A DNA stretch of 64,000 nt from Blasia pusilla. Lineage: Eukaryota. A program made the translations under genes and the position numbers. The notes under the pieces were generated by a model. The model was not told the DNA's origin. It did not search any database and was given only the letters and a program-made list of their open reading frames with translations. The DNA is taken from positions 16,554,001-16,618,000 of the forward strand of contig CM114271.1 in NCBI GenBank assembly GCA_050084515.1, given 5' to 3'. This document shows, one piece after another, positions 1 to 39,752 of the stretch; the stretch's first letter is position 1; each line of letters opens with the position of its first letter.

Positions 1-3000
1 CACGGCGCCCACTTTTTGTAGGATAGTGAAAGGCCCAATATAGGGAGGATTAAGCTTACGAACTCCTACTAATGATAAATTGGTTGTTGCTAACCAAACC
101 TTGTCTCCTTCACAAAACTCGACATCTCGACGATGAGCATCTGCATATTATTTTTGTCGATTTTGGGCAATAACCAACTTCTCCTTATCAAGTTGAACCC
201 CTTTCTGAATTTGGTCCACAAACTCATTAACTGCAGCTACCTTTATAGGTTCCCTCTTACTTTTCCCTATTCGAGTGAGACTAGAAGGAATTGAGGGATG
301 CTCGCCATGCATTAAAAAGAACGGTGTGATCTTAGTGGAAGAGTTCATGGAGTTATTATATGAGAACTCTACTAAGGGTAACAATGAGTCCCATCCTTGT
401 TGATCCTCCAATGTTAAGGCGCGTAGCATATCCTCAATAGTACGGTTGGCCCTTTTAGTTTGTCCATCAGTTTGAGGGTGATAAACCGTAGACATGGCTA
501 GTTTAGTTTGGAGCAATCCGAATAAAGCCTTCCAAAATAAACTCGTGAAATGGGTTCCCCTATCAATGATAAGCACTTTAGGAAGACCATGATGGACAAA
601 GACTGTCTCGATGTAGATCCTAGCCAACTCTCGTGCAGTCACAGTCTTCTTGGTCGGACGAAGGTGTATCAACTTGCTTAGTCTATCCACAAAGACCACA
701 ATAGAGTCATATCCCGTGATCGTACATGGTAGCTCACAAACAAGATCTATAGTGACTTGTTTCCAACATTTTTGAGGTATTGGGATCGGCTGCAACAATC
801 CTGCTGGTTTTGTGTTACTAGCCTTGATTTGTTGACAAATCCTACAACTCCTTACATATATGTCAACATCTTCTCTCATTTTGGGCCAATAGTACGCTCG
901 TTGTAATCCCTCTAAGGTTTTTCTCAGCTCCCATGTGACCCGCAATGACTGTGTCGTGAGCTTCAGACAATACTTCAGTGCGTAATTTTGGATCTTGTGG
1001 GATCCATACTTTATCTTTATGGAAAACCAATCCTTGAGCCTTGTATACTCTATTGGCATGAATAGCCACGGTAATTTCTTCATCCTCCTTTGTGGCTTTG
1101 GATAACTTTTTCCACCAACTAGAGTGAATCTCCACTTCATTTATGTTATTCATCTGTGGTATACGAGTCAAGGCGTCTGCCAACTGCTTCTTTCCTTCCA
1201 CATAGACAATTTTCATCATGAATTGTTGTCGCCATTCTGCCCATCGAATTTGACGTTTGGAGAGCTCCTTCTGGGACTCTAAGTAGACCAAGGGCTTGTG
1301 ATTAGTCTCCACCACAAACTCCTTATCGCCCAAGTAATGTTTCCAATGTTTGGTTGCCAACACAATAGCAAGTTCTTCTCGCTCAGTTGTATGGTAGTTT
1401 TGCTCCGCTGGCAATAGCTTGCAAGAAAAGAAGGCAATAGGATGTCATCCATCCTCCCATTCTTGTTGTAGTACTCCTCCAATACTAGTACCTGAAGCAT
1501 CTGTGGCCAACTTGATGGGTCGATTAGGATCATACCACTTCAATATAGGGGCTTTGATCAAGGCATCCTTTAATGATTGAAAAGCAATCTCTTGTGATGT
1601 GCCCCAATTCCATTTTTGTCCTTTCCCTAGTAAAGCTGTTAAGGATTGTGAAATTTGAGCAAAACCTTTGACAAATCTTCGATAGAATCCTGTTAACCCT
1701 AGAAAACTCTTCAATTGAGTTTGATCCTCAGGTGCACTCCATTTTTGGATCGCTTCTACCTTCTCACTCATCACTTGAATACCTTCTACGCTTACTCGAT
1801 GCCCTACATAATCAACTTCTGTTTTACCGAACTCACATTTTGACGCTTTAGCATACAACTCATTATCTTCTAGGATTTGAAGGACTTCTCGTAGATGATT
1901 TATATACTCCTCTATCGTTTTACCATAGACTAAGATATCATCTAAGAATACAATGACAGACTTGTCTAAATATGGACGAAAGATATCATTCATTAGGCCC
2001 ATAAAGGTTGCAGGTGCATTAGTAAGACCAAATGGCATGACTAAGTATTCAAAGTGTCCATACCTAGTATTTAAAAGTCTTGTGCACATCTTCATCCGCA
2101 ATTCAAATTTGGTTGTAGCCGCTACGAAGGTCAAGTTTTGTGAAGTATTTTGCTCCTTGTAGTTGGTCGAACAAATCATCCATTCTTGGTAATGGATATT
2201 TGTTTTTGACTGTTTGTTGATTCAGTGCTCGATAGTCGATACACAGTCGCATGCTTCCATCCTTCTTTTTCACAAAAAGGACGGGGGCTCCATATGGCGA
2301 GACGCTTGGTTGGATGAAGCCTTTTACGCAACATCTCCTCCACTTGGGCTTTGCATTCTTCTAATTCTCTTGGAGCTAAGCGGTAAGGAGCTTTACATGG
2401 TGATGTGCTTCTTGGAAGGATCTCAATCTTGTGGTCTACCCTCCGTTTGGGTGGTAACCCTGATGGTAAATCATTTGGGAATACATCTTTGTATTCCTCC
2501 AATACTTCTCTCCACTTGTCTGGTACCTCTGAATATTTTTTCAAACCATAAACATCTCTTATTAAACCTAGGAAACATACAACTTGATGTTTGATGGCGG
2601 TTTTTCCTATTACATATAGGGGTAGGGTTCTAGGATGTGATCTGACTCTGTCTCCGTAAAGCTTCCACTCTCGAGTCGTCACGAGTCTTTTTTCTCCAAT
2701 CTACCTCTGGATTATACTGTTCCATCCAAGGCATTCCCAAGATAACATCATAACGTGCTAACCTAATGACCTTCATCTCCAACTCTTCCAAATACTTTCC
2801 TATCCTCAACTCTACCCTTCGAGGAAGCTTCTCAATCTTTTCTGTTTGCCCATTTGGTAATTCTACCTCTTCTTTTTGATCCCTCTCTAAAGCTAAGCCC
2901 AATTTCATAACTATGGCTCTTGAAAGGAAGTTTTCTGTTGCCCCATGATCAATCAACACTCTAACTTGGGATCCTTCTACTTCCCCATCTATAATAATGA

Positions 3001-4302
3001 GACATGTTTCTCCTCTCTTCAAACCATTTACCTCTACATATTTGTGTCGACCCTCGTCTTTCCTCCTTTTGTTAGAACCAATATATCCGAGAGGCACGAT
3101 TACTGGTGGTTGGCGTTTCCCTGAGGTCCATCTTCTTCGTCATCTTCCTGCATATGCCCTCCTTCAAGATGATTAAGGGGGCGTCGATATGGCCTATTTT
3201 GAGCCTACGAAGACGACAATTCATGGATATATGACCATATCTACCACACTCAAAACATTGGCGTGTATCTCTTCGGACTTCGAATTCTCTCCCTCCTCTA
3301 GGAACCCCGACCCCGTCGGTTCAAGGAGCAATCCCTTGTATGTTGGGGTTCCGATCTCTCTCCATTGGCACCCTTCCATTATACCTTCGCGGCGCATAAC
3401 CATCTCGTGCTTGAAGGTTACCCAACTCCATGGGTGTGGGTCCGTAGTGGTTGTTCATGGAAGCAACCACCTCTCCTCCTCCTTCGTACACATTTGCCAT
3501 ACGTTGGGCACATGCGATTGCTTCATTGATATCTTTTGGGTTGTCTCGAATCATCTCTTGACGCACCTTCTTCTTCAAACCTCTCTTAAACAGATCGAGA
3601 GCTTCTGGCCCACTCATGTCACGGATTTGTATCTACAAGTCACGAAACTCTTCGATGTAGTCCTCCATAGTTCCTTTCTGCTCCAGTCGCCATATTTCAT
3701 TCTAGCAGTGAGGATTGGATTCACAGCTTGGAAATTTTGCAGCAGCCCTTGCTTCATTCCGCTCCATGTAATTTGTTGAGTTGTTTCAATCAAGGATCTC
3801 TCCCATCCTTGATACCATGTCAATGCTCGATCGATTAACCAAGATCTTACGAACATCCCTGCAATATGATCATCAATGTTGAAAAGGGATAAATGGATTT
3901 CCATCCGAGTGATCCAACCCTCTAATACCCCCATGGCTCGACTTCCTTTGTACGGTTCTACCTTGCATGCCTTTGTCATTTTCAATATCAATGAGGCTTG
4001 AGCATTCATCTCCATCACTCTTTGTGCTGCTTGGGCCTCCAATGCTCGTGCCCTTAAGGTTTCGTCACTCTCCCCAAAAGTCACGACACTCGTGGTTTCC
4101 GTCTCCATCCCACCTATCGGTAGAACTCTCTCTCTCTCTCTCTACTCTCATATTTCTGACCGAAGCAACTTCTTGCGCTAATTCTTGGACTTGGTTTTGA
4201 CTTTGATCAAATGCAACTCTCAACTCTCTCAATTCACGAATCATATCCCTCAAAGTTTCTTCCATGATCGCTCCGACTTTCCCTTGATCCTTTACTATCA
4301 CT

Positions 4303-10326: not shown

Positions 10327-13620
<3,294 letters not shown>

Positions 13621-14674: not shown

Positions 14675-15350
14675 GAGTAACCAACGTACAAGGATAGCGC
14701 GCCCAAAATACAAGGCCAAGAGAACCCCCGAGGTGAGCACTTATGCGCCATATAGTGCACTGCAGGTTCTGTAGAAGGCAACCCACATTTGTGCAATCTG
14801 TGATGATGGGGAAAACCTGGTTGTTTGCGATGGGCCTTGTGCAAGACACTTCAACGCAATTGCATAATCAACCGGGATTATAGAGAACTCTTGTCTAGGG
14901 TTCAACCTCCCACCAAACCACGAGGGGAGCTGGTTGTGCGAGGATTGTGTGAAGCAAATGGCCATGTGTGCCAAGTGTGGTCTAGAGGGGAGTTTTGCAG
15001 AGAGCGAGGATTCTAGGGTTCGTGTGAGAAAGTGCCCAGATACCTTTTGTGTGAGGTTTTTTTGCTTTACTTATTTGCCTACGGGATTGGAGTCTTGCCC
15101 CATGCATTATTGCCCAGAATGCCATAAGCATGATAAGGAGTTGTGGGAGGACATGGTCATTTGCCCTAGGTGCCCCACGGCATGGCATTGGACTTGCTTG
15201 AAGAAGGCTATGAGCAAGGTTTATGCATGCGATTGGATTATATATGACCATGCTGCATGTGGTGAGGATAGGTGGTGGTTCTATTGCCACCTGCACAAAG
15301 TTGATCCCACACTTCAGACTCCTTTGAGAGATCATATTTCATGGATTTGA
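14675..15350 (+). pseudogene. EDM2-like tandem PHD-finger module, with in-frame stops
   Basis: One frame reads HICAICDDGENLVVCDGPCARHFN...WLCEDCVKQMAMCAKCG...CPMHYCPEC...ICPRCPTAWHWTCL...FYCHLHKVDPTLQTPLRDHI, which matches my recollection of the EDM2 PHD region. Stops at ~14772 and ~14865; probable splice acceptor at ~14674. Confidence 0.75.
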
Positions 15351-16057: not shown

Positions 16058-17045
16058 TAAATCTTGCAAGGGGACATCCATCTAGTATCAATATGTGCTC
16101 TGCCATTGGAAACCAATAAATCCCAACTCCAAAACGCTTCAATCAAGTTGGCTCCAATAAATCTTTGAACTCACTCGTCATCGTCCGAGAGATCTTCCAA
16201 TAGTACTGTCGACTTTGCCCTCCCGATTTTTGAAATTGTAGGAAGTGACAATGGTGTCACTATCAATGGTGGCTCTGGAGCTGGAGCAGTTGGCTTTAGA
16301 AGCAAGTTGTATACTCCCACTAGCCTCTCGTAATCCGCCTTTGGCTCTTTGCAAACGTCGAAAAGTTTTGACCTTCCCTCAAGGTAGAGAATGTTTCTGC
16401 CACTCTACTAGGTGTCTCTGATACTCGCCCCTAATAAGCCCACTAAGTCAAAGGCCAAGTCACCCAGCCTAGAGTAGAACTCCATGAGCGTTTGCATCAA
16501 GGAACATGACTTCTCCCTTCCTCCAAGTAAGGGGGTCCCTTCTTGCATGAAGATTCTCGAGGGGGAATTGTAGAGACTATCTAAGTTGTATCCATCGGAG
16601 CATGGATCCACTGGATCCGGGATTTGGAACACCTGGAATTTGTGCTCGGGCCTAACAAAGCAGTAGACAAATGAGTGGTCCATCTGTGAACAAGCAAGTG
16701 GAAAATAATGTCATCAAAAAAAGAAAGGTAGTAGATTGTTGGTCTACTCTCCATATAGTGACACAATGTGTTACTCGTTGATCCGACGGGTTGCTCATTT
16801 GGCTAGACACAATAGCAATCTGTCAGAGTCCGACGGGTTGCTTTTCAAATCAAATAGGAATCTATGGTGATTAGCAAGCCGTTGGAACCGGACAGGTTGC
16901 TCAATAGGCCAGACACAATAGCAACCTGTCGGAGTCCGACGGGTTGCTATACAACTCAAAAAGGACTCTTTGTTGATGAGCAACATGTCGAAACCCGACA
17001 AGTTGGTCATTTTGGTGGACAGAACCGCAACCTATCGGAGTATGA
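16058..17045 (-). mobile_element. Inverted fragment of a related ParB-MTase MULE copy (last MTase exon, palindrome-rich intron, 3' region)
   Basis: 16683-16170 encodes MDHSFVY...GGREKSCSLMQTLMEFYSRLGDLAFDLVGLLGAS..., homologous to 34228-34735 with the same TTCACAG acceptor; six palindrome copies at 16772-17041. Confidence 0.88.
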
Positions 17046-23340: not shown

Positions 23341-24202
23341 TATAAAGCGTTACCAATACATATTTCGGATTAGGAAGTAGGGTCATACTTTATACTTTAT
23401 ATGTGTATGAACTCTCAATTACTTACAGGTAGCAATATATGGACATTTTTGTAGGTATACTATACATAATATCATATTTCTGCCCCAAACTGAATCTGGG
23501 CAGGTTGTTCCTGAGCAATTTTGGCTCAAGTGCGTGTAGGTTAATCGAAAACTACATTGCAGTGGTTGTTTAGGAGCCCACATGTACACAAATGGGGTCC
23601 ATGATGTAGGTTGCAGTGGGGCCATAGAAGTAGGCATTTAGGGTTGCATTTGCAACACTCAAAGTAGTTGCAGGTTTAATTTTTCAAATTTTGTCTTTAC
23701 TTCCGAGCCTTGCCTTGCAATCCTTGCTCTGCATAAGTGATTTATGTTTGAATGGGAAGATAACTACCCTGAGCATTGCTTATATGCTTATATATGTTGA
23801 TGCGAAGGTGTGAGGTGTGGTAAGAGGAGAAGAAGAGAGGAAACTACCTTCAACCGAAATAGATTTATTTTTTTTAAGACAGTTTCATGTGATTTGAAGA
23901 GAGTGTCCGTTGGGTTGAAGAGAGGAATTTTTTGTGTGAATATTTTGGTACTTTTCTGCTCGGTTCTTGAGCACTCCCACCATTTTTTTTTCCTCTTCCA
24001 TATTTTGGCAACTTTTGAGTCCGACGAGTTGCAAATTGCACAAGATTTATAAAATCGTGTGGAATCATAAGTGTGGAAGCAATCATTTTTATCATTCAAA
24101 GTCTAGAAAAAATTTATTATTTGCCCTCGGCTGAATAGAGTTAAGTTCACAGTGAAGATTTTGGAAAAATGAAAGTATAGTCTAAAATCTCATTTTGCAT
24201 CC

Positions 24203-27200
24203 TCAAAGTGGTTTGATTAAAATACTCCTCACTTCTTTGAGGGACACAATCGGTTGGTGGATTCTTACTCCTACCTCTGATTCTCTTAGAATTACAAGCA
24301 ACACATAGTACATGTGCTTACAAGGGAAATACTTTTCGCCATTTGTTTCTCTTTGGATAAAGTTTTCATATGAACACGTGGGAAAGTAACAGGTGTGCAC
24401 CATATACACCTCTGCGACATTTGAATTTACAGTGTTGTTCCTGACCCAATACATCCTTTCTATTCCATCGTCGTTGTTAACATCTTTTGTGGCGATGATC
24501 TCCATTTTTGCCTCTAGAGTTGATGCAATTCGTTTTGCTCTCTCCACTATTGGTCGACACAATCTGTTTCTCTTCACCCCATTTCTAGACTCAAACAGAA
24601 ATAGCGGATTGAGATCATCCATCTTCACCGGGCACATGTTGACGTTAATCTTGGGTTGAATACGAAATGCAAAGGTCTCTGGAATGCAAACATGCTTTGA
24701 ACTTCCTCCGTCTACGAAGTCTAAAATCGGCACTTGTAAGATTGTCCACTTCATCTTGAGTGCAATTCATACCTGCGGCGATGGGCCAAATCGTGGGGAT
24801 ATTCCCCGGAGCTCCAATGGTAGGCGGATATGACTTGCGAAATGTGCAAGATTCATTTGGGCAGAAGAAGTACTTCATTTGATCCCCGGTCCTCTTGAAA
24901 CGATCAAAGGTTTTGAGTGAGTGGTTCATCCTTATGATTCTTATTTAGGAAAGTGTCGATGATCTCCTAATGCCATCAGATCCTCAAGTGGATCCACGCC
25001 GAGGGTTGCTCGAGATATATGCCACCGTTTCAGGTTGCAATCCATCTCCATGACCATTCCATATTGTTGAACCACCCCAACGACCGGATGTTGCAAACTT
25101 CCAAAGAACGGAGGGCTTTTGAAATAAAACATTCATGATTTTGGAGAATTCCGGGGTCCCCGAATACTTGGGCGGCGTAATTTCCTCATCCAAATCAATC
25201 ACCGGATTCGTTCCTCGATGGTGCCTTCACCTACCAAGTCAAGATACTCATTGGTCTCCAAGTCTCGCTCATTTGCTCTACCACCATCTCAGATGGGACG
25301 TCTTGAACGCGCCTATGAATATCCCCACCAATATCGTCTTGCTTGAGGGGAGTTCCTCAAAGGTTGAAGGCTTCCACATAGAGTTTCTCATCACCCGATC
25401 TCATAGCCGCCCTGACATAGAGCTCGTAGATCAAAGGCCCTCTTCCTTTTGTTATGCCTTTTGTGAGGAAGATATGGGATATTGCAGACTGTAGCATTGC
25501 TCTTGCCTGGTCTTGTTGGCATGCCTCCACAAGTGAAATTCTTTGGCATATTTGTGACGACCTCCACGAGGAATGAACACTTTCTGCTCCACTTGTGTTG
25601 GGGTAGAGGGCATTTTCATGAATGTTCAATCCCTGCAACAACGGCACCGTGAGAAGGGAACCAAAATAGCTCTATGAGCAAAGAAAAAAGCTACATGTCG
25701 GAACCCGACGGGTTGCAAGTCGGAGGCATCCCATGAATGACTCTGTAACCCGTTGGTTTCCGACGTGTTGCGACACCCAGGAACCACCTAGTGCAACCCG
25801 TCGGATTTTGACGGATTGCAAGTAAATTTGGCCATGCGACTTGCAACCCGTTCTTTTCCGACTGGTTGCACTCTCAGGCAACCTGTCAACCCGTCTGATT
25901 CCGACTGGTTGCAAGTAAGTTTGGCCGTGCGACTTGCGACCCGTCGGGTTCTGACTAGTTGCAAACTCAGGCAGCCCGTCGATAAGCGACGGTTTGAACA
26001 CTCAGGGAGGCAACCTGTCGCATCCGACAAGTTGCTTGGTTTCTATAGTGCCCATGCTTCTCACCTTTAGCTGCAACTCTTCAAACAATTTTCAGCGAGA
26101 TAAATTATTGAACTCACCTCCCGCATGAAGTTTCCCCATTGTCTCATTCGTACAGTCCACCAACTCAACCAAGAGCATAACTCTTTGTACTTCCCCTCAA
26201 TCGCATGTTTCCTCCACCATCCATGAATTTCTTCTTGGCATTCCATGGCCTGTTTCAAGGTTTTGCTGTCCTTGCAGCGTTGGAGTAGAGTGACATGCTC
26301 CGTCCTCTTATTCTCCTTAATGCAAGATTTGGTGTAGCGAGTCACAGAATGTTGCCAATGGAAAGCATCCGACCTTTCTCTCTCCGGTTGAACCTCCCCA
26401 TCCCAAAACACTTCCCTGATAGCAATCCACCCAGGTTGTGCATTATCCGCCATGAACCCATAAATTTCCAGAGGTAGCCTTTTGTTTTCCTTCACCAGCT
26501 CCAATAAGAGTAACCAACACATCTTCAAACTGCCAACTTCTTCTGCTTTTACTTCACAGACAAATATAGTTTTGAGTCCCTTCTCCACATGGTCATAAAC
26601 GTGAGCATCCATTGTCAACCATCCGTTCAGCACTCTGTAGCAAATATCAAAGCTTACCCAGCTGCCGTAAAGATCTTTCCCTTTCCTCATTCGATCTATA
26701 AGATCGAGACCACTCGACGGACCTGTCGTTGACATTTTGAAGACATAGGCCCTAGATCCTCCGCCTCCCTGGCCCATGAACTGCCATCTCTGAATGAATG
26801 GAAATCTGGAGTTGGCCTTGATTCTGGCAATGGCATCCATTTCGGCCGTCTTTCCATCCAGTACCCGTATTTGACGCAGCAAATTTCGGAAGTATTCAGG
26901 ATCAGCGAGAAATGCGAGATTTTCCCAGAGTTGTTTCTCCTCAGCAGTCTGTGATCTCGCCTTGTCCAAGGATTCCAAGCAGTTGTTCACAAATTTGTGA
27001 TGCTGTTGTAAGTTTGATCACTCCGGGCTTTGAACCCGGAGAGTTTTTGAAGACCTCGGCCACTTTCTTTGCCACATCCTCCTTGATGTGTCTCTGAATT
27101 GCATCGGTCACAAGATGAGTGTGGGAGCCAACATGAATTTCCAGCCTTGTTTACTCTGACATGGAGCCAAAGTCGTGGATAATGAAAAATATTTATGCAG

Positions 27201-28129
27201 GACAAGCTCCAACGCAAAAAGGGGATGCTTGACAATGAGGATATCGATGGCCTCTCGACGGTATGGTGGCATCGACCTCATATGGAGTTTCTCCATTCTT
27301 GGGGGGGAATTGCGACATATTGACCCGCCCGTTGCGCTCTAGATACGGGCATGCTGGACTTCTACACTCCAAGGTTCCAACGCATTGGTGGCGGGAGACA
27401 ATCCAAGGACCATGTGGAATTGAAACACTAGTCTGTTGAAGCCTACACCATCGATGAGAATCAGACTTTTTGTCCATACCCTTCAGGCGTCCTCCATTTT
27501 TCTTTTGAGCAAGAGCAGCAAGTGGAGGCAACTCAAAAATGCAATTACCATCGTACGTGGGCGGCAGCTCGTCGACAAGAATGTGCTTGAACATTTTCAA
27601 GGCTAGAGACGATAGCAAACTATTGCTTGATATTCGCAAGAGGAATGAGTAGGCGGATAGAGGGCCCGGTTGGTGTCCGACCGATCCACTGAGGTAGACA
27701 ATATCGGGAATTTCTTCAGGAAGTACAACATTATAACGAACGTGTGAAGTTGGAGTCAATGCGGACCCTTGAGCTAGGATTTGCAAACGTAGAGCTCAGT
27801 GCAATAGGAAATTCTCAACCATCTACTTGGGAAACAGAGGAATTCAGAGGCAAGCCGTAAACTTTGTATTGACCATTTGCTAGAGGTAGGAGATTCCATA
27901 CTTTACGGTCTACAATCACTGACTGGATTGTCTCACCTATTATGTCCTCTGTACCGTCCATCCTAACATCCTTGGACACAAAGATGGTTCCAATTTGGAG
28001 AAGAAATCGAACTGAGAGAAAAATTTCATCCACAGGTATGAAAGACTCACGAGCTTGCAATCGAACGATTTCTGATTGAGGAAGGGCTGCCAGATGACTG
28101 CCACAAGTGAGCTTCACATAATTATCCAT
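24203..28129 (-). pseudogene. MULE transposase: WRKY/GCM-like Zn DNA-binding domain, DDE core, SWIM finger
   Basis: CVGTLECRSPACPY...HCQASPFCVGACPA...HVGSHTH (GCM/WRKY-like); VSFDICY (D1), FMADNAQ (D2), ERSDAFHW (CxxH position), NTSGAESVHSSW (E), PTCSYENF...CKHMYYV (SWIM). Intron ~25634-26117. Frameshifts and stops. Confidence 0.85.
25690..26036. repeat. Cluster of 8 degenerate 27-bp palindromes in the transposase intron
   Basis: GCAACCCGTCGGA-N-TCCGACGGGTTGC-like copies at ~25690, 25745, 25793, 25843, 25887, 25936, 25971, 26010. Confidence 0.9.
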
Positions 28130-28314
28130 TCCTAGAAGATTCCACTGGGAGGAGACAGAGAATAAGAATGAGGATAAGAATGGGTGGGAATGAGAATGAG
28201 AATGAGAATGTTCAATTTATAGTGAATAGGGACTCAGATTCTCCTCACCTAATTTGACTGACAAGATGAAGTTTGGTAGGTGAGATTGTCTGACATGATG
28301 GATTCAATTCTATT

Positions 28315-28931
28315 GCAACCTGTCGGAGTTCGATGGGTTGCAAAATTTGGGAATCAGAGACGTGGGTTGCGAAGCACCCAGTTCCATTTTTTGTTTCCTT
28401 GTCCCAATGCAAATTGGAAGCCGTCGGAGTCCGTTGGGTTGGTACCCCCTTCATGCCGACCAATGGTCTTTTGAGACAATTTTGCTAGCATCAAACACGA
28501 GACATCGCTTGCATTTGCTAAGGTAACTAATCGATGGGGACTATTATGGGATTGTCCAACTCAGGGTAGACCTTGTGACCCGTCGGATTGCAAGAGGTTG
28601 CCTCAGAACTATCCATTGTCGCATTGTTACCCGAGGGATAGAAAAGAGTGCAACGTGTCTGTAACCGACGAGTTGCCCATGTACCTCGTCTATTACCCCA
28701 AGATGAGGGAAGCGTGCAACCTGTCGGCCTCCGACGGGTTGCGCAAGTGCCTCGCCTTGTTATCCCAAGACGAGGGAAGGGTGCAACCCGTTGGTCTTTG
28801 ACAGGTCGCGTGGGTACCTCGTGTTCTTCCCCCAAGTCGGCGGAGGCGCGCAACGTGTCGGACTCTGACGGGTTGCCAGGATAGCTCGGCTAGGACGGAT
28901 GCCTCCAACCCGTCGGAGACCGTCGAGTTGG
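28315..28931. repeat. Cluster of 8 palindromes in the divergent promoter region (partly 67-bp period)
   Basis: Copies at ~28315, 28417, 28576, 28650, 28716, 28783, 28850, 28905. Confidence 0.9.
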
Positions 28932-29020
28932 TGGTTTTCACGTCGAGACCTCCATAACGGCCGACACGTCGCCGTCGGAATGACGGTGCGACCCAACGGT
29001 CATCCCAACGGCTTGAAAAG

Positions 29021-29027
29021 TATAAAT
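29021..29027 (+). promoter_or_regulatory. Putative TATA box of the MULE accessory gene
   Basis: TATAAAT about 220 bp upstream of ATG 29239, just downstream of a palindrome cluster. Confidence 0.5.
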
Positions 29028-30494
29028 AGGCTAGGGTTTGCTCATTTCAGGTTTTTTGTTTTGCGATCTCGATTGCTCTTCAGCGCAGCAGCGGACCAAA
29101 TACCAAGGGGCGCTTTACACGGCGACTCATCGCGAGACGATTCAAGCGACTCATCAAGGTGACTCATCGAGGCGACTCATCAACGCAACTCATCAAGGCG
29201 ACTCATCGTGCACAGAAAGTAATGTTGTTGTCGAGGAGATGGCATTTTCGGGAATAATGACGAGGAAAAAAACTCAAGCAAGCAAGATTGGGAGCTTCAC
29301 TCCCAAGTCCAAGACTCCTGCGTCACCATCTCCAAGGCCTTGTTCGGCCAATGAGATAAGGCAGCAAGAGATTGAGGAGCGCGATAGGGAAGCGGAGATG
29401 CACATGCATGAGCTTCTTGCAGAACGTGTTAAGGAGGCAATTGAAAAATAGAGCTTAGAGGTTGAGGCATCGCAGGCCTTGAGGAAAAGGATCGCCGAGG
29501 AGAATCGTGAAAAGAAGCGTTTGGACGCGTTGGTGAGGAGAGTAGAATTGGCAAAAGCTCGAAGGGAAAAAGTGATTTCCATTGAAGAAAGCCCGCTCCG
29601 TCCAACCAAAAGTGTTGAGATGCAGGAAATGTCTCCGATGAAGTCCGGGGACACAATCAATATAAAATCGACTGAGGAAACGGGCAAAGTTCAAGTGATG
29701 GACGATGAGGTCATGAGGACCGCTAGCGTGGAGATGGTGGACATCTCTGAAGAAGCAGGAGAGCGGTCTTCCTCGTCTCTTAGCCCTGCGGAAGAAATCA
29801 ACCTCTATCGGATCGACGAGTTTCCAGTGGACTTGCTAGCTGTTGTCCGAGAGCAGTTGGCGGGCCAAGACACCGACCCAATCTTCGAGCGGGTAAGATA
29901 CGATCTTTGTTCTTTGAATTATGTGAAGGCCCATGTTGCAGTTCATTGGCAATTCAGTGTAGTTTATTGAACTTTTCCCGGTTGTGACATGTGGTAAAGC
30001 AGATGGCACTGATGGAGGGCCAGAACGCCCTGAGAATTCCACTTTTCCCATTGCGGACAATGGAGTACGTCCGCGAAATTCAGTCTGACGAGGATATTGC
30101 GAAGCTGAAACAATCGGCAGCGACATCATCCTATGTCGATAGCTTCCCTCCGTTCTATGTTCAGCCTTACGATGAACATGGAACCCAAGCGTTGGTGAAG
30201 GAGGAGGACTTGGAGGCGCTCGACACATTCTGGAGGATGAGAGATCAGGAATTCAGAAGGGCGATTGAGGGGACCGAATTCAGCTGGATGCGGAACCTGT
30301 ATTTCTTCATCTGGGATGGAAACCACATATTCATGGCGTGGACCCAGTTTGCAGAGGAGCGCCAAAACTCATTGGAGGCGCATTTTTGCGTGAAGGCAAT
30401 CATGCTACATCCATACCCTCATCACATGGCGACGGTGGAGATGGCCATGCATGCCATGAACATGTAAGTTTCCTCTTCCTTTATTTTGATTGGT

Positions 30495-31118
30495 GCAAAT
30501 CGTCGGACTCTGACGAGTTGTTTAACTAGTGGTAACAAAACTCGTTGAAGTCCAACGAGTTGCTTGACTGGACACTATTTTTTGGATGTTTTTGGCCGAA
30601 AGCAACTCGTCGGAGTCCGACGAGTTGCTTGACTGGCCGTTGTTTTTAGGATGTTTTTGTCCAAAAGCAACTCGTTGGACTCCGACGAGTTGCTTGACTG
30701 GCCATTGTTTTTAGGATGATTTTGGCTGAAAGCAACTCGTTGGAGTCCGACGAGTTGCTCGACTGGCCGCTGTTTTTGGATGTTTTTGGCCGAAAGCAAC
30801 TCGTCGCACTCCGACGGGTTGCATTCGCTGGCACGGTAAGGTGATCGGAGTAGGGGAGCTTGATTTTTGGCATCAAATTGCAGCTTTACTTGAAATTGCG
30901 CAACCTGTCGGACTCCGACGGGTTGATATGTTCACTTTTCTCGCGGAGAACACTCTCTGAATATAAATTATCGACAACCCGTCGGAGTCCGACGGGTTGA
31001 TACTAGGCAATCACAAATCTGAATGCAATCCGTCGGACTCCAATGGGTTGCAAAATTTAGCTCGTAGCTACCATTCCGACCATGAGGTGTGACGACCTGT
31101 CTGAGTCCGACGGGTTGC
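30495..31118. repeat. Array of 10 palindromes in accessory-gene intron 1 (65-bp tandem units at ~30537-30822)
   Basis: GCAACTCGTCGGAGTCCGACGAGTTGC repeated with near-identical spacers (TTGACTGGCC...TTTTGGCCGAAA), then dispersed copies at ~30900, 30974, 31025, 31092. Confidence 0.92.
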
Positions 31119-31685
31119 AGGAACCCATATAGCTTGCAAAATTTCTTATATTGAGTTTGGATGTGCATGATTGTATTCGAGGGGAATGTCACCCACCACT
31201 AGATCTAGGATTGCGATCGGGTGAAGAAAGTGCTAACAACGCACCCGGCAAAGTACAAGGGGTTCTTAGGCCACGCCCTTAGAAATGAGATGCTGGCAAA
31301 GGGGGCTCAAATAAAATAAAAAAACTTGGGCAAATACATTTATTTTCCAAGATGCAGCCGTGACAATTCTTTGCTCGTCAAAGATAATGGCCGCCAAGAA
31401 GAGCGCTTCATTGGAGCTGGAGCGGAGGGAGAAAGTGTGTGTGTCTGAGCGTGCTAAGTTCATCCAAGCTGCAGTATCTTCAACTACGAAGTACATTGCA
31501 AGCAAGATGCAGCGCTACATAGCCTTTCTCAACCCTGAACTTGGCCCCGATTTCTACAAGGAGCTGAAGGCGATAATCAAGCGCCAGCGGAAGAGGGATG
31601 AAGATCCGCAGGGTCGGATTGGGGAAAAAGTGTCTCTCCAACGATTTTCCTTGTCTAGAATTTCAGAATTTAGGAGAATCCGATT

Positions 31686-32503
31686 GATGAAAATCAATCT
31701 CGAGGGCATAGAGGCTCTAAAAAGAGGCTCCGTGAATGGTCATTCACACCATCCTTCTCGAGAAGTCCATGGTGTCTCTGATCCTGAAAAAAATCTCGTT
31801 CGGAGGAAGCAAACTGGAGAGTGTTGAAGATTTTGAACTTTGGTTGAATGGTCGGACGATGTTCAAGGATCACATCCTCCGCACACCTTGATGAAATTTA
31901 GTCTCGAGGGCATAGAGGCCCAAAAGGGCGGCACACCATCCTCCGGTGTCGAGAAGATCTCCCATGCTCCGTGAATGGTCATTCAGGGACGCGTTGCGGC
32001 TTCTCGAGAAGTCCATGCTCGTGGGTCTCCAAGCGAAGCTGAAAAAAATAGAGCCCGTTCCGGAGGAAGCAAACCTGGAGAGTGTTGAAGATTTTGAACT
32101 TTGGTTGGATGACATGCGGGACAAGCCCATAAAAAACCCAGGCTTCAGGACGATGTTCAAGGATCACATCCTCCCTCAGGCACACCTTGATGAAAATCAG
32201 TCTCGAGGGCATAGAGGCCCAAAAGAGGGCGACACACCATCCTCCGGGTGTCTCTGATCCAGTGATCTCCCACTGGCTCCGTGAATGGTCATTCGGGGAT
32301 GCGTTGCGGCTTCTCGAGAAGTCCATGCTCGTGGGTCTCCAAGCGGAGCTGAAAAAAATAGAGCCCGTTCCGGAGGAAGCAAACCTGGAGAGTGTTGAAG
32401 ATTTTGAACTTTGGTTGGATGACATGCGGGACAAGCCCATAAAAAACCCAGGCTTCAGGACGATGTTCAAGGATCACATCCTCCCTCAGGCACACCTTGA
32501 TGA
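31686..32503 (+). repeat. ~310-bp tandem triplication inside accessory-gene exon 2
   Basis: ~31970-32195 and ~32280-32503 are near-identical (LEKSMLVGLQA...KDHILPQAHLDE); a first copy from 31686 has many small deletions. Confidence 0.9.
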
Positions 32504-33763
32504 AGAAATAGAGGCGAAGAAAAGGGATTTTGCAAAGAAAAAGTGAGATCTTCAGGAGCAGGTGGCCGATGCATCTCGACTAAGAGCTGCCCAACGCATG
32601 GTGTTCAGGTACCTCGTCCATTGTAAGAATGCAGGTTCATGGAGAAAAATACCGGCATCCTACAAATTGTGGGCTTCTCCGCCTGATGGAGTGACATTTT
32701 CCATGTACGACATGGAGATGGCTCAAAGCATGTCCGACTCGGAGGTGGAGAATTGCCCGATCTGGCTGGACTTCAATGACCCTGAGGACATATTCGAGAA
32801 AAATCTACGCGTGCTCTATGATGCAGTGGCCGTAGGTAGGGATGACATCCCCAATTTTGTGCAGCCTGAAGACTTTTTTGAAGGAGATGCGGAGGAGCAA
32901 ACCATCGAGACAGCGGAGTTGGTGTCCAAGGTCGTCGCCGCCAAGGAAAAATCTACACTGGGTCTCAAATCCAAGGCGAGTGGATCGAAGAATTCCGAGG
33001 CCAAGTCTTCCCAAAAGAGGCTGAGAATTCAAGGCGAGAGGCGGAATCGTCCGGGCAAGCGAGGAGAGAGGGTCGGACCAGGTCCTCCACAAAAAAACTC
33101 CACCAGAGTCTGAGGTAATAGAGACCCCAACAAGCCAACCCCAGGCTCGGAAGAAGCGGAAGCGAGAGCTGCCAGGTTTGTCCCAAGGAGCAGATCAGGA
33201 TGTGGAATACACTCCATCATCCTTGGGAAGACATAGAGAAACAATGACCCGGACAAGCGTCATCATTCACTCCACGAATCTTCTGGATGAGCTGAAAAGT
33301 TTCAGTTCCCAAGCGTCGACACCCGCCATCGACAAATTGACAACGCTGGGACGGAAGCTTCAACGAAATGGGCACGCTCCTTGGATGGTCCATGGGGAGG
33401 TTGAGGAGGTGGCGGTGGATCTCCTTATCGCTGATTTGCCCTCAGGGTTGCGCTTGTGGGACGAGAATCCGTCCGACGGTATCCCAGATTGGAATGTCCC
33501 TCTTTCTTATGACCAGATCGCGCTCCTATTTTCCTTTGCAGACGCTTATCTCAGTGACAGGGGCTGTTTCTTGGTTTTGACTAGAGGGAGCGAGGAAGAG
33601 CTCTTCAACCTGTTGTGCGTCAAGAGGTCGCTGAAGTGGAGGACGGCGCAATCGTGGGTCATCAAGAACGAGTACCCACTCCGATCCGCGACAAGTCAAA
33701 TCCGTGTAAGGGCTCTAAATCCATATCCAAATTGTCTTGCTCCGACATGTTGCATCTTTGCAT

Positions 33764-34065
33764 GCAACCCGTCGGATTGTTTGAGGTGGAGACTTCGGTG
33801 GTGCAATTCGTCTGAAAGCGACGGGTTGCAAATTTACCGCAAGTCTCCATTGGGTGAATGCAACCCGTCGGAACTCGACGGGTTGCAAGTGCTTATGCTT
33901 TTCCTTGTGTTTCTGGAATGATGCAACCCATCTGAATGTGACGGGTTGCTCTTAGCCAACCATGGGCTGCTCTAAGCCAGCAACCTGTCGCCTTCCGACG
34001 AGTTGTTCATGGCAAAAAAATCACTAACACTTGTAAAACAACATGTCGGACTCCGATAGGTTGCT
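33764..34065. repeat. Cluster of 6 palindromes in the intron splitting the MTase-like domain
   Basis: Copies at ~33764, 33803, 33860, 33923, 33980, 34040, all within intron 33706-34227. Confidence 0.88.
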
Positions 34066-34804
34066 CCAATGTTAGGACTATAACTAAGTTCTCTGGGGTT
34101 AAGCGAAGTTCTTTGGGAATGAGATGCACATTGTGTCACCATTTTGATAGTATACCTTTCTTGTTGTTGCATATTGAAATTAGCTCTTTCTTGTTGCTGA
34201 CATTTTTTCCAACTTGCTTCTTCACAGATGGACCACTCCTTTGTCTACTATTTTGTAAGGTCCAAGAAAACTTCCAAGTGTTTCAGATCCTCGATCCAGT
34301 GGATCCATGCTCTGATGGGTACAGCTTAGAGAGTTTATACAATTCCCGGGAATTTACATGGAAAATGGTACCCCCTTACTTGGAGGAAGGGAAAAGTCTC
34401 CGGCGTTGATGCAAACGCTCATCGAGCTCTACTCAAGGCGGGGTGACTTGGTGTTCGACTTAGTGGGCCTTTCAGGGGCGAGTATCAGAGGCGCATGGTA
34501 GAGTGCCAAGAACATTCTCTGCCTTGAGGGAGGGCAGGAATTGTTTGACCTTTGCAAAGAGGCAAAGGCAGATTACGATAGGCTAGTTGGGGTGTACAAC
34601 TCTCCTCCGAAGCCGACAGCTCAGGTTCCAGACCCACCATTGGTAGTGACACCATCGTCACTTCCCATGATTCCAAAATTTGGGAGGGCAAGGCGGACAG
34701 TAATTGTGGAAGAGCTCTCGGACGATGACGAGTGAGTTCGAAGAACTCAAGGACCCAGCTTGACTACGGCGTTTTGGAGTAGGGATTTATTTGATGAGGA
34801 GGCA

Positions 34805-35880
34805 GAAGAATTCATAGAATAGATCAAATGTACAGTTTCAAGCTTCCTTTGGATGTAATAAAGGACAAGATTTTTTCAAACGATGATGGTGTTTGTAAAA
34901 GTTTGTTGAATATCTTTTTTGGTCTTGTCGAAGATTCTATCTACTCAACAATTCATATTGGTGTTGGATTGTAAAAGGTTGCAACTTTTCACTTTTTGAC
35001 CATTGCACCTTTTTAACCACTTCTAGGCAACCTGTCAAATTCCGACAGGTTGGCTGCGTGAGTGATCGGACTCTTTCCCTGTTAGTCCAACTTTAAAGGC
35101 ATTTTGGCGGGCTTCTTCACTTTGGCACCTTCCCCTAGTTTCGTCAAACAAGTCTTAGGCTTCCTCTCTTCTCTAAGACGTGTTGGATTCCTACTGCTTG
35201 GTTGAGGACATGATGGTCTCTCCAAGGACGGAGCACATATTGATACTGGATGGGTGTCACCTTGTAGAGCATACAAGATTTACTGCCAAGGAAGGTGGTG
35301 GGACTCAAATCAGGTTACATGGGACCGTTATAGTGTACCAGGGGGATGCCAAGGCTCTCAAATTTGCCAACATTTTCGATCCCCGTCTATAATCGGCCAA
35401 AGGAGCCACTTGTATCCCAAGATATTCCTTTTGTATAGGAACCTAGGAGAGTTAGGAGTAAATTTGTAAATGACGAGGCTGAAGAAATCATAGACTAGAT
35501 CAAATGTACATTTCCAAGCTTCCTTCGAATTTAATAAAGGAAAAGATTTTTTCAAACGATAATGGTGTTTGTAAAAGTTTTATGAATATTTTTTTGGACT
35601 TGTCGATTGTGTTCGTCTAGCAACTCAAAATGTTTATTTTGCAACCCGTCTGATTCCGACGGGTTGCAACTTTTCACTTTTTCACCACTGCAACTTTTTA
35701 ACCATTTCCAAGCAAGCTGTCAGATTTCGACAGGTTGGTTGCTTGAGTGATCGGACTCTTTCCCTATGAGACCAACTTCTGAGGCATTGTGGCGGGCTTC
35801 TTCACTTTTGGCTCGTTCCCCTAGTATTGTCAAACCAATCGTAGGCTTCTTTCTTCTCTAAGACGTGCTGGATTCCTAAA
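34805..35880. repeat. Diverged direct duplication in the MULE 3' region (~34805-35190 vs ~35480-35880), each with palindromes
   Basis: Shared TAGATCAAATGTACA...TTTTCAAACGAT..TGGTGTTTGTAAAAGTTT and GAGTGATCGGACTCTTTCCCT...GGCGGGCTTCTTCACTTT blocks. Confidence 0.8.
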
Positions 35881-36576
35881 GCCTGTCGGATTGCCATTTC
35901 AGATTCCCAACCAGTTGGATCTTCGTGGGTGCAGGGTGGAATGGAATCATTTCTCAAAATCTTTCCTTTGTTATGGTGAACTTGGTTGCAAGGGGTGCAA
36001 GCCATCTAATTTTGATGGGTTGCAAGAGTTGCAATCTGTAAAATTCCGACGGATTGGGAGGGGTGCAGCTTCTCGGTTTCTCAGATTTAGGATCTGAATG
36101 AAGGGACATCAGTTCCTCTTTACTCCAGACAGCTAAAAATCTTTTGGTTTAGTTATCGTCTCTTGTGTTCACATTTCACAAAGTTGGTCTTTATTTGAAC
36201 CTTTCATTGAGATGAGATTGCTACTTCTGGTCATATTATTTGCCAATGGTCCTCCAAAAAATAGTCCTGGGCACAGCTTATTGTAGACTGAGACAAGCAA
36301 TGTGAAAAAACTTAGGCTCACATGGAGAGTGATGGGAAAATGTTTGTAGTGGTGTTATGATGTCTACTAGTTTTTTTCCCTGTGGAAAAAGGAGGTTTCT
36401 TTAGGCCCGAACGTGGACCACTACCTACTCTCTTCTAAAGATTTCATGAACTTGAAAGCAAACAAAAATTTCAAATATGTCAAAAATTTTGAAGAGAGGA
36501 GGCGGATTTGGCCCCTTTTTTTTAAGAGAGACTCTCCTCTCTTCCTCTCTCCTGCCAGAATACGAGCCCCCCGTAG

Positions 36577-38250
36577 GTGTTAAGGTGAGAGCTCGATGTG
36601 GATAGACGTCAGATTTCAGTCCTATCAGCAAACATGTTTGTTGCATTCTTGGGCAAGATCCCCACCCCGGCGAAGAAACCTGCCTTCCAAACCTCTCTTT
36701 GGCGGGATGCGGTGGAGTGGGTTCATTATTGCTACTCTAAAGAGCACAAGAAATTTTTATGCTTATGCTCCAAGTGCATTGAAGATTGTCGCGGCCGTGC
36801 AACTTTCAACTTGCACATTGCATCCCATTGGTTGAGGCCGGTGCGTGGAACAAATGCGATGAAGACAAGGTGGATGATGATGGTAAGCTAGGGTCTCTTT
36901 CCCCTCATGACAAATGGTTTGAAGATTACTTTCTTGATAGGATGGAAGTAGCTTATGCTTGCCTATATCTTTTGATGGTGTGCAGTGTTGCAAACACCAT
37001 CAGCACACCAACAAGTTTGCAGCTGATGGTGTTGCATAGTGCTGCAAACTTGCGACTTCGAGGCACGGTGCAGCAACGTTGGGCCAACCAAAAAAATCAA
37101 AAGAAGGCCGGGCTCCTAAACAAAGCCAAAGAGCATGCTAGAAGGGCGACTGGCCCTTTTTGTCCCCATGCCAAACTTGCCGGACTTGCTGATTGGGTTT
37201 GAGGCCTTTAGGACATAGGAACATCGGCAAACCTCTTGGGCAGGTTTAGCTAAGATAGACGAGTATGAGAAGGCCTGCGAGGAACTTAAATCCACACTAG
37301 TGCGGCCTACCACGACTATGAAAGGATGGATAGAGGCATGGCGTAGACTTCTCCCTTCCACTATCTATATAGATAGAGCTCACCATTCTACATATTGGAG
37401 ATGCCTAGTTGTTTTCCATCACCTATATGCAGTTTGGATCATGGATAAAAAAGAGCCATAACGTTGGGATGCTGGAGCAAAAACTAGGCAACAGCAGGTT
37501 GAACATGCCTTGGCTATTTTAGATGGCATGCGTCGAGCACAAAGGCATCACTGGTACATTAGTGAAGAGTATTATCTCCCACGCTTCAAATATAACTACA
37601 AGATATGGAAGGAAAAGACTAAGCCCATCATACTCGCCAAGTTCATAGATAAAGTCTCTCGCATGTATGTGGATGGAGTTGGCTGCAACATTGCCCACGC
37701 TTGTATGCAGGTACTATATGCTGTTTGATTTCATGATTGTTTGGATGTCATTGAAAAATTGATTGTGGTCTTTTTTTTTCTTGATATTAATGAAGGTACA
37801 ATTGTTACCTATCTATGTGTACATGATGTGAAGGATGGGCTAGATGTCCCAATTATAGATTCTAGTGACTCTTACGGTAGTAACACGATGCTCCCAAGTC
37901 CCCAACCCGACATCTAGAGGAGTGCATGCCAAGTCAATGAGGAGGAAGAGAGTCCTGAACTTGACGATCATGTAGGCGTTGAAGCAGGCACTAATGAAGA
38001 AGATCCGATTCTGCCAAAGAGGCGCCCAAGACCACCAAGGACCAATGTTGAACGGGTTCAAAAAGCAAACATGCGTAGAAAGAATACTGTCCACACTCAA
38101 AAATCTCCTTGATTGAACCCTACGCGGGAGTTGGCTACAGCGAGCACACCTTGTAGGAGAATTCAGAGTCTGGAAACAAGGGATGTTCGTGAGGTGGATT
38201 GCTCCCCTACCCTTGATGGAGTGGTCTTGCAGGCTGAACCTCAATTATCA
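36577..38250 (+). pseudogene. 3' part of the unidentified decayed gene interrupted by the MULE
   Basis: Broken protein-like frames (36598-36891, 36786-37202, 37510-37728). Removing the MULE restores an intron-like T-rich tract ending CGTAG|GTG in frame with 36598. Confidence 0.35.
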
Positions 38251-39752
38251 AGGACTGCATCTTAGGGCATGACAAAAGAAGAGAAAGTGCAAGGGAGAAA
38301 GATGATGATTGAGTCACAGCAAGTTACTATGCCCACTTTTTTTTTTCCTTCATATTTGCTTGTTTTCGTTAGGGTGTGGATCTAATTGCATTTGTGATAA
38401 TTTTGTGATAGGTCCTTGAGCTTGGAGGTGGGAATTGCAAGGACCAAGGCAAGGAGGTTGATGAAAACTTAGTGACTTGGGATCTGGAGGGTTATGTAGG
38501 GATGGAAGATGGAGACTTCTTGTCCACACCATTGCCTGATTTCTGCAGGCTTGCCTTACGGCCTTTGGATATGTTTAGAGAGTCCACAAGGGCCAATGAA
38601 GACCAGTAGTATGAAGATACATATGCAATTTTTGAGTGTCATCTTTCCTTGTGCTCTTGTTTCCCATTTTTTGCTTCTGCTTATTGTTCTCATTACTTTG
38701 TACTTTTTTGGACTTGTGTATGTAGTGACACAACAAAGGTGGCACTCTCATTTTCAGCATTGTAGTCTAGATTGTAGTATATGGAATTTGGCGGATGAAG
38801 CGGTGACACAGCCATGTTGCTTGCAAGTAAGGGATCTTACCCTTTACCTGTCGTGATCCTAGCCGTAGGTATTCAAATAATTACATTACATGTGAGAATT
38901 GATGTTGCCAATGTGTGTTTGGATGAACTTATGCTGCCATGACGCTACATTTTGGATATCTTTTGAGCATGTTTCAGATTTTTTTAACATTGTGGAGGTA
39001 AGCTTCACTTGCAATGTGACCTCCTTTTTTTGCTGCTTCTGCTCATTTAAAGTCCAAGGCTAACATTTCTTCAATGATTTTGTTGCAGGATTGAAACTCT
39101 TATATATTACACATCCTGACTAATAATAAGCTGCATAGAGGATGGAATGTAGCACTTATATCCCTTAGTTCCATCAGCATAGTCAATGAAGATATATCTT
39201 TCAGACTTAAGGTCTAATTTCTGATGTTTCTCAAAAGGAACATGAGCATAACAAATATAGCCAAATACTTTCAAGAGGGAAAAATCAGGTTTACTTCTTG
39301 TGAAGACTTCAAATGGAGTTTTATCATGAACTCCTGCTATTGGAGATTGGTTGATTAAGAAGACTACACATGCTACAGCCTCTGCCCAATAGATCTTAGG
39401 CATGTTCTTCTCCTTCAGCATAGCTCGTGCCGCTTCAACAATATGTCGATTCTTCCTCTCAGCCACTCCATTTTGGTATGGAGTGTAACGGCAAGTCACT
39501 TGATGTTGGATGCCATTCTGACGTAAATAGTCATCAAACTCTGTTGAAAGATATTCTCCTCCTCCATCACAACAAAATTTCAGAATGTGTTCTCCAGTCT
39601 GCTTCTCTACTAGAACTCTGAATGTTTGGAACATTGAGAATACCTCTTACTTGGCTTTCAGAAAGTATACCCATATATACCTAGAGAAGTCATCAATAAA
39701 TCAAATAAAGTACTGGAAATCACTAAGGCTATGTTGTGATGTTGTCCACACA

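Follow-up and report, generated by a model that had tools for sequence, protein, structure and literature searches.

A probable Mutator-like transposon, now decayed, with a methyltransferase-like accessory unit and palindrome arrays in Blasia pusilla

A stretch of 64,000 nucleotides of Blasia pusilla DNA (contig CM114271.1, positions 16,554,001 to 16,618,000 of the forward strand; hereafter the window) was analyzed, in which two sets of open reading frames (ORFs) occur on opposite strands between approximately 23.8 and 36.6 kb. With modest confidence, we favour the explanation that they are the remains of a decayed, once autonomous Mutator-like transposon, in which an outward-facing transposase was combined with a beta-class methyltransferase-like accessory unit and with a 27-bp dyad-symmetric site, repeated 35 times, by which the element would have recognised its own copies. 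The two gene units would have been transcribed outward from a central region of ~1 kb with a shared promoter, and the palindromes lie in this promoter region, one transposase intron, two accessory introns and the 3' part.

In the METHYLTRANSFERASE-like part of the accessory unit, motif IV (DLPSG, 33433-33447) precedes the motif X-I stretch (GGREK..DLVGLSG, 34382-34498), and the order IV before X-I is the same in the Riccia proteins P0005 and P0009. Over motifs X-I-II, exon 3 of the window reads GGREK..QTL..GDLVFDLVGLSGAS..LE. When 1.84 billion representatives were searched in full by HMMER with the window domain (P0001, window 33025-33771), just five clusters were obtained: two were the Riccia proteins P0003 (E 1.9e-15) and P0004 (E 2.9e-13), one was a Riccia sorocarpa cluster (P0005, with P0009 as a longer member) that bears the UniRef name DNA methylase N-4/N-6 domain protein, and the remaining two were ENA clusters. 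Relatives of the domain were found in this way in Riccia sorocarpa, R. fluitans and ENA contigs, and the methyltransferase-like domain is conserved over at least three lineages. P0003 and P0004 align to the window at 31357-31707, 32154-32942 and 33352-33711; P0005 and P0009 run on past the exon with DLPSG into GGRRK..QTLLENF..GDIVIDFVGGWGAT..VAE, a stretch that recurs in the window at 34382-34549 and, in the second fragment, at 16677-16357 (tblastn).

The affiliation of this domain was examined with family profiles and with phage and plasmid records. The Riccia members matched PF01555 at an E-value of 1.4e-5 (25.6 bits for P0009 and 24.5 bits for P0005) and the PHROG DNA methyltransferase families at 2e-7 and 2.4e-6, NCBIfam methyltransferases were also matched, and tblastn found 44 phage records and, with P0005, 8 plasmid records, in 7 of which an annotated DNA methyltransferase gene was weakly matched at motif I. 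Exon 3 of the window (P0015, with its stop read as X) matched PF01555 at E 0.011 (16.1 bits) and a PHROG DNA methyltransferase family at E 1.3e-3, and exon 3 of a second, truncated copy in the window matched neither PF01555 nor PHROG. A bona fide PF01555 member, the adenine methylase of Synechococcus phage ACG-2014f (P0017, L002:938-1708; 103 bits), gave an alignment with Riccia P0005 that spans motifs IV to II (blastp E 3e-9) and one with the family profile over 183 columns (hhalign probability 95.1%, E 3.3e-8). PDB sequence searches with P0001, P0005 and the family profile gave nothing relevant. Judged from these sequence comparisons, it holds true at the level of the family that the C-terminal ~300 residues of the accessory unit are a divergent homologue of the PF01555-type (beta-class, N6/N4) DNA amino-methyltransferases, with phage or bacterial ancestry.

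Across the family, the pattern D..D.P...P.WN...D.G around motif IV and the pattern GGR.K..QTL.E in motifs X-I-II are invariant, which argues that the domain was once under selection. In the S-adenosylmethionine (SAM) motif I and motif II, Riccia reads DFVGGWGAT..VAE and the window DLVGLSGAS..CLE, with a TAG in between. Motif IV itself is DLPS, DLPT, DLPK or DVPE in 9 of the 9 distinct aligned members and thus departs from the canonical (D/N/S)-P-P-(Y/F/W). Where the family has DLPSG, the phage enzyme P0017 has DLPYG and not DPPY, so a leucine at the second position of motif IV is compatible with a recognised PF01555 member.

The non-coding parts of the same region hold one palindrome, GCAACCCGTCGGA-N-TCCGACGGGTTGC, which is 27 bp long and dyad-symmetric. 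With up to 3 mismatches, 16 sites were counted in the window (14 inside the element and 2 at 16815-16947) against 0 expected; with up to 7 mismatches there were 39, against 0 in each of 20 shuffles. The large majority of these 39 (35 sites) lie within 25690-36057, another 4 at 16815-17006, and none elsewhere in the 64 kb. Conservation is confined to the 27 bp (1.25 bits per position in the core vs. 0.10 in the flanks, a contrast that is partly one of construction, as the sites were picked by their core), and the arrays, which differ in unit length (50/93, 67 and 65 bp), have just this core in common. The centre reads GANTC in 15/39 sites, and 50 of the 163 mismatches to the palindrome consensus are CpG-type transitions, a share that is expected of an old methylated repeat. 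In the array at 30539-30822 both arms have changed in step (ACTCGTC / GACGAGT for ACCCGTC / GACGGGT) with dyad symmetry kept. Since the units arose as tandem copies, this matched change is scored as a single event.

Transcription was followed in three raw RNA-seq runs with the same species label, whose reads are just 90-99% alike to the window and therefore derive from copies other than this one or from another strain; the majority align only in part. The strandedness of the RNA agrees with the divergent layout of the two gene units, and two array-bearing introns (25633-26117 and 30464-31168) are spliced in the RNA of related copies. In the accessory unit, 6 reads join 30462 to 31169 and so remove a 705-base intron with 10 palindromes; on the minus strand, 6 reads of one run join 25635 to 26121 and skip 485 bases, which correspond to a canonical intron, GTGAGT(26117)...CAG(25633), shifted by one mismatched codon and made largely of the 7-palindrome array. 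The copy number of the arrays differs among copies (joints 30627 to 30772 and 30785 to 30598). Further joints lead from palindrome to palindrome (28342/35637, 30796/35637 and 34224/35659), some of them on opposite strands. They may stem from family members that arose by deletion, from palindromes that recombined, or from template switching while the libraries were prepared.

The copy in the window is confirmed to be pseudogenised. Its accessory unit contains three in-frame stops (TAG 29449, TGA 32544 and TAG 34499), at least three frame changes (one near 33025-33113 and two in exon 3), and in exon 2 a tandem duplication of 310 bp (31854-32504; 2.2 copies, 93% matches), which is not a multiple of 3 and breaks the frame. 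This duplication doubles a conserved protein stretch, REWSF...ILPQAHLDE. The second copy, which retains exon 3 and the four palindromes that precede it, shares 81% DNA identity with 34186-34791 (tblastn E 2.5e-7) and reads TAG TAG at the codon position of the main copy's TAG 34499. Either both copies descend from an already broken gene, or CAG decayed to TAG in parallel, CAG being a CHG methylation site. The main copy and the second fragment are both dead. The preliminary description of this locus, made from the letters alone, had named a methyltransferase of beta order with motif IV before X-I, one palindrome filling the non-coding parts, and a pseudogenised copy, and all three of these readings were borne out.

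The minus strand appears to encode a MULE-like (Mutator-like element), multi-exon DDE transposase, as suggested by language-model neighbours and by motifs. In a protein atlas of language-model neighbours, the 316-residue ORF at 26067-27017 falls among PF10551 MULE / ZSWIM1-3 RNaseH-like clusters (scores 0.87-0.93). Of the 30 nearest clusters, 19 come under a single MULE-bearing set, and every family-bearing set shown carries PF10551. The order D-D-[C/D]xxH-E is the signature of MULE transposases, and the catalytic order D..D..[C/D]xxH..E can be read directly, with FD, FMAD and DAFH in 26118-27017 and GAES in 25357-25632, where the E of NTSGAES is presumably the third catalytic residue, the motif being as in MULE transposases. 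By eye, a SWIM-like stretch, C-x-Y..(16)..PCKH, is seen at 24203-24766, in which one Cys position reads Tyr. Between 25.3 and 27.5 kb, the RNA reads have the orientation that a minus-strand mRNA would give. A PDB sequence search with the DDE ORF gave nothing. A misclassified Plavaka or CACTA element was considered and set aside, since the atlas placement was made from the transposase ORF itself and the element does not end in CACTA.

The coding pieces of both strands and the 35 palindromes all fall inside 23812-36571, the limits first proposed, which are plausible for the element, with its exact ends still short of established. The element had been described as bounded by a target-site duplication (TSD), and the flanks indeed match at 8 of 9 positions (cgaaggtgt vs. 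cgtaggtgt, a candidate 9-bp TSD), but such a match is not above chance, as simple arithmetic predicts tens of them if each end is free over a few hundred bases. The end-to-end alignment for terminal inverted repeats (TIRs) is likewise within the range of shuffles (best score 26 vs. 19.7 ± 2.8, maximum 38); the sequence shared by the ends is only a short purine-rich inverted stretch, and no longer inverted repeat was found within ±3 kb of the proposed ends. If the element is a MULE, it belongs to the TIR-poor kind. A joint of 23808 to 36626, of the kind that an empty site would produce, is seen in seven RNA reads, with a shorter side of just 26 letters and a right breakpoint ~50 bp outside the proposed right end; as independent support for the limits this joint is a weak hint.

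The mechanism that we infer under the favoured explanation starts with a dimeric protein of the element's own, the likeliest being its methyltransferase-like accessory protein, that would recognise the dyad sites in its own copies and would either methylate them atypically, as N6-methyladenine (6mA) or N4-methylcytosine (4mC), or merely occupy them; the resulting self-specific mark would then counteract host silencing in the manner of VANDAL elements and their VANC protein. Three points make the accessory protein the first choice as binder: beta-class enzymes read short palindromes (the CcrM and HinfI-type members read GANTC, found at the centre of many of the sites), its motif IV points to an atypical enzyme or to a binder, and the layout is as in VANDAL, where VANC binds tandem non-coding motifs. 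An anti-silencing function of accessory protein and palindromes would be a reasonable analogy. A more specific version, in which an atypical amino-methyltransferase, perhaps with a ParB-like loader, recognises GANTC-centred palindromes in the promoter and introns of the element and writes 6mA/4mC or shields them, so that the element's own copies alone escape host silencing by 5-methylcytosine, seems to us rather improbable; if it were true, transposon-borne PF01555 genes could be a route by which bacterial-type 4mC enzymes such as DN4MT1 entered liverworts.

To our knowledge, transposons with epigenetic tools of their own are rare, VANDAL/VANC being the only plant case that has been worked out and the PAG cassette of red algae so far one of description only. 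In VANDAL elements, VANC binds motifs that are repeated in tandem in non-coding DNA, and this binding removes silencing marks (PMC10398659); the parallel of layout drawn in the preliminary description is borne out. VANDAL elements are of the Mutator type, as the Blasia element probably is, and both are devoid of good TIRs, with accessory genes beside the transposase and a short motif in tandem in their own intergenic and intron DNA. The Blasia element differs in that its accessory protein would be a PF01555-type methyltransferase homologue and its motif is a 27-bp palindrome.

A close precedent exists in red algae, and the preliminary view that the combination was not known to be described has been overtaken by a 2025 preprint on them (10.1101/2025.02.11.637652). 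According to its available text, Plavaka elements of Bostrychia carry PAG2, which is a PF01555 DNA methylase with SET, and PAG3, which has a ParB-like part (HHpred E 0.29) and a 2OG oxygenase; tandem inverted-repeat arrays adjoin PAG3, in the authors' proposal the transposon would bind its own sequence and modify it, Mutator elements of Chondrus crispus are reported to carry related accessory genes, and PAG2 and PAG3 also occur on Zisupton and Fanzor-encoding elements of Bangiophyceae. As far as that text goes, a DNA transposon, a PF01555 accessory gene, a weakly ParB-like part and inverted-repeat arrays are common to these elements and the Blasia element. Compared by description, the latter is set apart by its land-plant-type host, by its non-canonical motif IV, by a methyltransferase and a 'ParB-like' part that share a strand, whether within a single unit or side by side, and by the lack of SET and 2OG, neither of which was found by Pfam in any window ORF or Riccia relative. 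The novelty is in the host lineage, the transposase family context, the domain combination (no SET/2OG found) and the degenerate catalytic motif. A literature search found no land-plant Mutator-like element combined with ParB and methyltransferase, and this is apparently the first such case for land plants.

Fusions of ParB with N6_N4 methyltransferases had been called typical of phages and prophages, and the accessible part of a recent preprint agrees that they are enriched there (10.1101/2025.10.10.680097); several eukaryotic adenine methyltransferases have been traced to phage ParB-terminase loci, according to the part available of Iyer et al. (PMC4738411). The accessory domain resembles the phage PF01555 enzymes in whole-domain homology, in the order IV..X-I-II and in motif IV of the cyanophage (DLPYG vs. 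DLPSG), and differs from them in being eukaryotic, intron-containing and transposon-borne, with the aromatic residue of motif IV lost. The 6 annotated phage and plasmid methyltransferase genes examined were all stand-alone, none being fused to ParB. Marchantia has host PF01555-type 4mC enzymes, DN4MT1a/b, which act in sperm and have the motif TSPPY (10.1101/2021.02.12.428880, accessible part). These enzymes and the bdelloid N4CMT are, so far as the sources describe them, also bacterial-type amino-methyltransferases on eukaryotic DNA, in one case in liverworts, but they are host genes and keep TSPPY. Neither DN4MT1 nor N4CMT was among the 5 representative matches of the window domain or in the PDB searches, and there is thus no sign of close kinship.

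If the favoured explanation is right, a bryophyte-type Mutator-like family with a methyltransferase homologue and palindromes would extend the theme of self-directed epigenetic control to land plants and would offer a compact pair for study, one protein and one 27-bp site. It would also bear on the origin of eukaryotic 4mC/6mA enzymes and on the reuse of degenerate methyltransferases as sequence-specific DNA binders. As the copy in the window is dead, its value lies in pointing to the family and not to the locus.

Several results weigh against this explanation. On the side of the accessory unit, the PF01555 scores (25.6 bits in Riccia and 16.1 bits in window exon 3) are below the Pfam gathering score of 26.7, and the N-terminal half of the window subfamily alone reaches an hhalign probability of only 1.6% with the phage enzyme, in the same register. 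Motif IV is without its second proline and its aromatic residue, the latter being the one that stacks on the target base, which makes catalysis doubtful. Neither accessory part gave a usable structure, with a pLDDT (predicted local distance difference test) of 38 for the 'ParB-like' segment modelled by AlphaFold from its single sequence and of 34 for P0005 modelled with a 10-row alignment; metagenome scans with two family alignments gave no confirmed member, and a homologue search with Riccia P0003 returned the query itself only. The TAG at one codon common to both window copies means that the gene was perhaps broken before they arose. On the side of the transposase, Pfam found neither MULE (PF10551) nor SWIM on the minus-strand ORFs, with no match even at E ≤ 10, so that the 'MULE-SWIM transposase' of the preliminary description stands by its atlas neighbours and its motifs read by eye, but not by Pfam. 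The transposase is also an equally legitimate candidate for the binder of the palindromes. Lastly, transposase, accessory gene and palindromes are seen together in a single full copy, while the link in the second copy is just between exon 3 and palindromes.

Some of these results fit an alternative that we hold to be unlikely but the most serious of those considered, namely that the palindromes are transposase sites or expanding, satellite-like hairpin repeats, and that the methyltransferase-like gene is a captured or horizontally acquired passenger, catalytically dead and without a role. The non-canonical motif IV in all 9 distinct aligned members, the TAG shared by both broken copies, the variable copy number of the arrays and palindrome-to-palindrome RNA joints such as 28342 to 35637, as would be seen with recombination-prone repeats, would all be expected under it. 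Yet the domain is kept in at least three lineages with invariant residues in the SAM motifs and next to motif IV, which argues for past selection, and arrays of different unit length share nothing beyond the 27-bp core. The sites are also internal, 0.5-1.9 kb from the proposed ends, whereas known MULE transposase sites are terminal.

The other alternative of substance concerns the first part of the accessory unit, which the preliminary description had joined, as a DGNH-type ParB/Srx-like segment, to the methyltransferase in one three-exon gene. Under this alternative, a single spliced gene would encode a ParB/Srx-like N-terminal clamp and a methyltransferase-like domain, and the protein would load on the palindromes as ParB does on parS and spread over the element; we consider this improbable. 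The two parts do share a strand and follow one another in the order required, the GTAAGT donor at the end of exon 1b is used in RNA, the WDGNH segment is present at 30312-30326 within a G-x-x-x-x-x-A / DGNH stretch, and ParB + PF01555 fusions are enriched in phages. Tandem units of ~43-67 bp, each with an inverted repeat, moreover resemble plasmid centromeres such as sopC. The language-model neighbourhood is the only positive sign of ParB identity, which is unproven: the ParB_N set is on 2 of the 30 nearest atlas clusters (with ParB_N on 11% of the members of the cluster shown) and DUF6551 on 3 of the 30.

Against this stand the searches with the ParB-like segment, which gave no match in Pfam, PHROGs, NCBIfam, PDB sequences or phage tblastn and no homologue in 5.8 billion proteins (word search, near and longer lengths). 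Its hhalign probability with three plasmid ParB N-domains, all that a PF02195 search of the phage and plasmid records gave, was 0.2% in what is a low-power test, and the fold model failed. Box II (GxxRxxA) reads G-N-H-I-F-M-A, with G and A in place and an Ile (ATA) at the Arg position of this broken copy.

The gene structure also speaks against a single fused transcript. The spliced RNA lands at 31169. From there the frame in this copy stays open for 11 codons before a stop, with an AATAAA beyond it near 31310, while the conserved exon 2 begins only at ~31352, ~180 bp further on and in another phase; no RNA reads bridge this gap, where the depth is <1. The gene models of Riccia P0003, P0004 and P0009 (3 of 3) start at or after the equivalent of exon 2, without the exon-1 part. 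Exons 2 and 3 of the methyltransferase-like gene are joined by prediction, with an exon 2 end at CGT/GTAAGG (33705) and an exon 3 start after ...CACAG (34228), both in phase 0, and there are more introns than the three-exon model had, one predicted at 29893-30002 and one supported by RNA at 30464-31168. A frameshift at 29970/29988 was rejected, as the sequence offers a phase-0 GT..AG mini-intron at 29893-30002. The 'ParB-like' exon may belong either to the transcription unit of the methyltransferase part or to a separate gene beside it, likewise on the plus strand, and of one protein or two neighbouring genes we lean slightly towards two. The self-marking interpretation of the preliminary description keeps its methyltransferase-like accessory gene and its palindrome arrays, and no support was obtained for the ParB identity or the single fused transcript.

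That the stretch is nested or composite, the methyltransferase-like gene being part of some unrelated element beside a MULE-like transposase locus, is very unlikely: it would account for the non-significant TIRs and TSD and for the single full copy, but the same palindrome fills the RNA-verified transposase intron and the accessory introns, and in the remaining ~50 kb it occurs in the colinear fragment only.

Table 1. Features of the proposed element and of the second copy in the window (positions of the window)
Feature	Position	Strand	Evidence and remarks
Element limits as first proposed	23812..36571	none	approximate; without significant terminal inverted repeats
C-terminal transposase piece, SWIM-like C-x-Y...PCKH	24203..24766	-	ORF; motif by eye
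Transposase exon with NTSGAES	25357..25632	-	ORF; adjoins RNA-supported intron
Transposase intron, GT..AG, 7 palindromes	25633..26117	-	RNA joint 25635 to 26121
Transposase exon with DDE core (FD, FMAD, DAFH)	26118..27017	-	ORF and atlas neighbours
N-terminal transposase ORF pieces	27193..28216 (27815-28216, 27193-27795)	-	ORFs; RNA depth on matching strand; no family found
Intergenic region between divergent genes	28315..28931	none	8 palindromes, including 67-bp tandem array
Accessory exon 1a, charged coiled-coil-like	29239..29892	+	ATG 29239, in-frame TAG 29449; no family found
Predicted accessory mini-intron GTAAGA...CAG, phase 0	29893-30002	+	sequence
Accessory exon 1b, 'ParB/Srx-like' segment	30003..30463	+	WDGNH 30312-30326; ends at GTAAGT donor used in RNA
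Accessory intron, 10 palindromes and 65-bp array	30464..31168	+	RNA joint 30462 to 31169
Accessory exon 2, conserved middle and N-terminal methyltransferase-like half	31352..33705	+	Riccia alignments; DLPSG 33433-33447
Predicted accessory intron GTAAGG..CAG, phase 0, 5 palindromes	33706..34227	+	sequence; RNA depth near zero, no joint seen
Accessory exon 3, C-terminal methyltransferase-like half, motifs X-I-II	34228..34735	+	tblastn, Pfam, PHROG; TAG 34499
3' non-coding part	35027..36057	none	5 palindromes and internal ~400-bp direct duplication
Second truncated copy: exon 3 and 4 preceding palindromes	16115..17006	-	colinear with main copy
Palindrome cluster, 4 sites	16815-17006		beside second, truncated copy
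Palindrome cluster, 7 sites	25690-25997		in transposase intron
Palindrome cluster, 8 sites	28315-28931		intergenic, shared divergent promoter region
Palindrome cluster, 10 sites	30495-31118		in RNA-supported accessory intron
Palindrome cluster, 5 sites	33803-34064		in predicted accessory intron
Palindrome cluster, 5 sites	35027-36057		3' non-coding part

The 3' part of the element contains a direct duplication of ~400 bp (34794-35193 and 35470-35878, 82% identity), RNA reads of related copies skip from 34744/34789 to 35221, and other copies seem to differ in structure around 34794-35878. The window overall is transposon-rich, plant-like DNA. By eye from the ORFs and without a family search, other transposon remains were recognised as Ty3/gypsy-type protease-RT-integrase pol ORFs (148-4141, minus strand), a LINE-type reverse transcriptase ORF (10530-12929, plus strand) and a copia-type integrase ORF (39107-39646, minus strand), and a cysteine/histidine-rich ORF that looks PHD-like (14868-15350, plus strand) adjoins the second accessory fragment. 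Two stretches of ~33 bases (30050-30084 and 36630-36662) drew large numbers of RNA reads, 34-69 in each run, which differ from the window on both sides of the stretch, and these may be short motifs shared with abundant transcripts, or chance matches.

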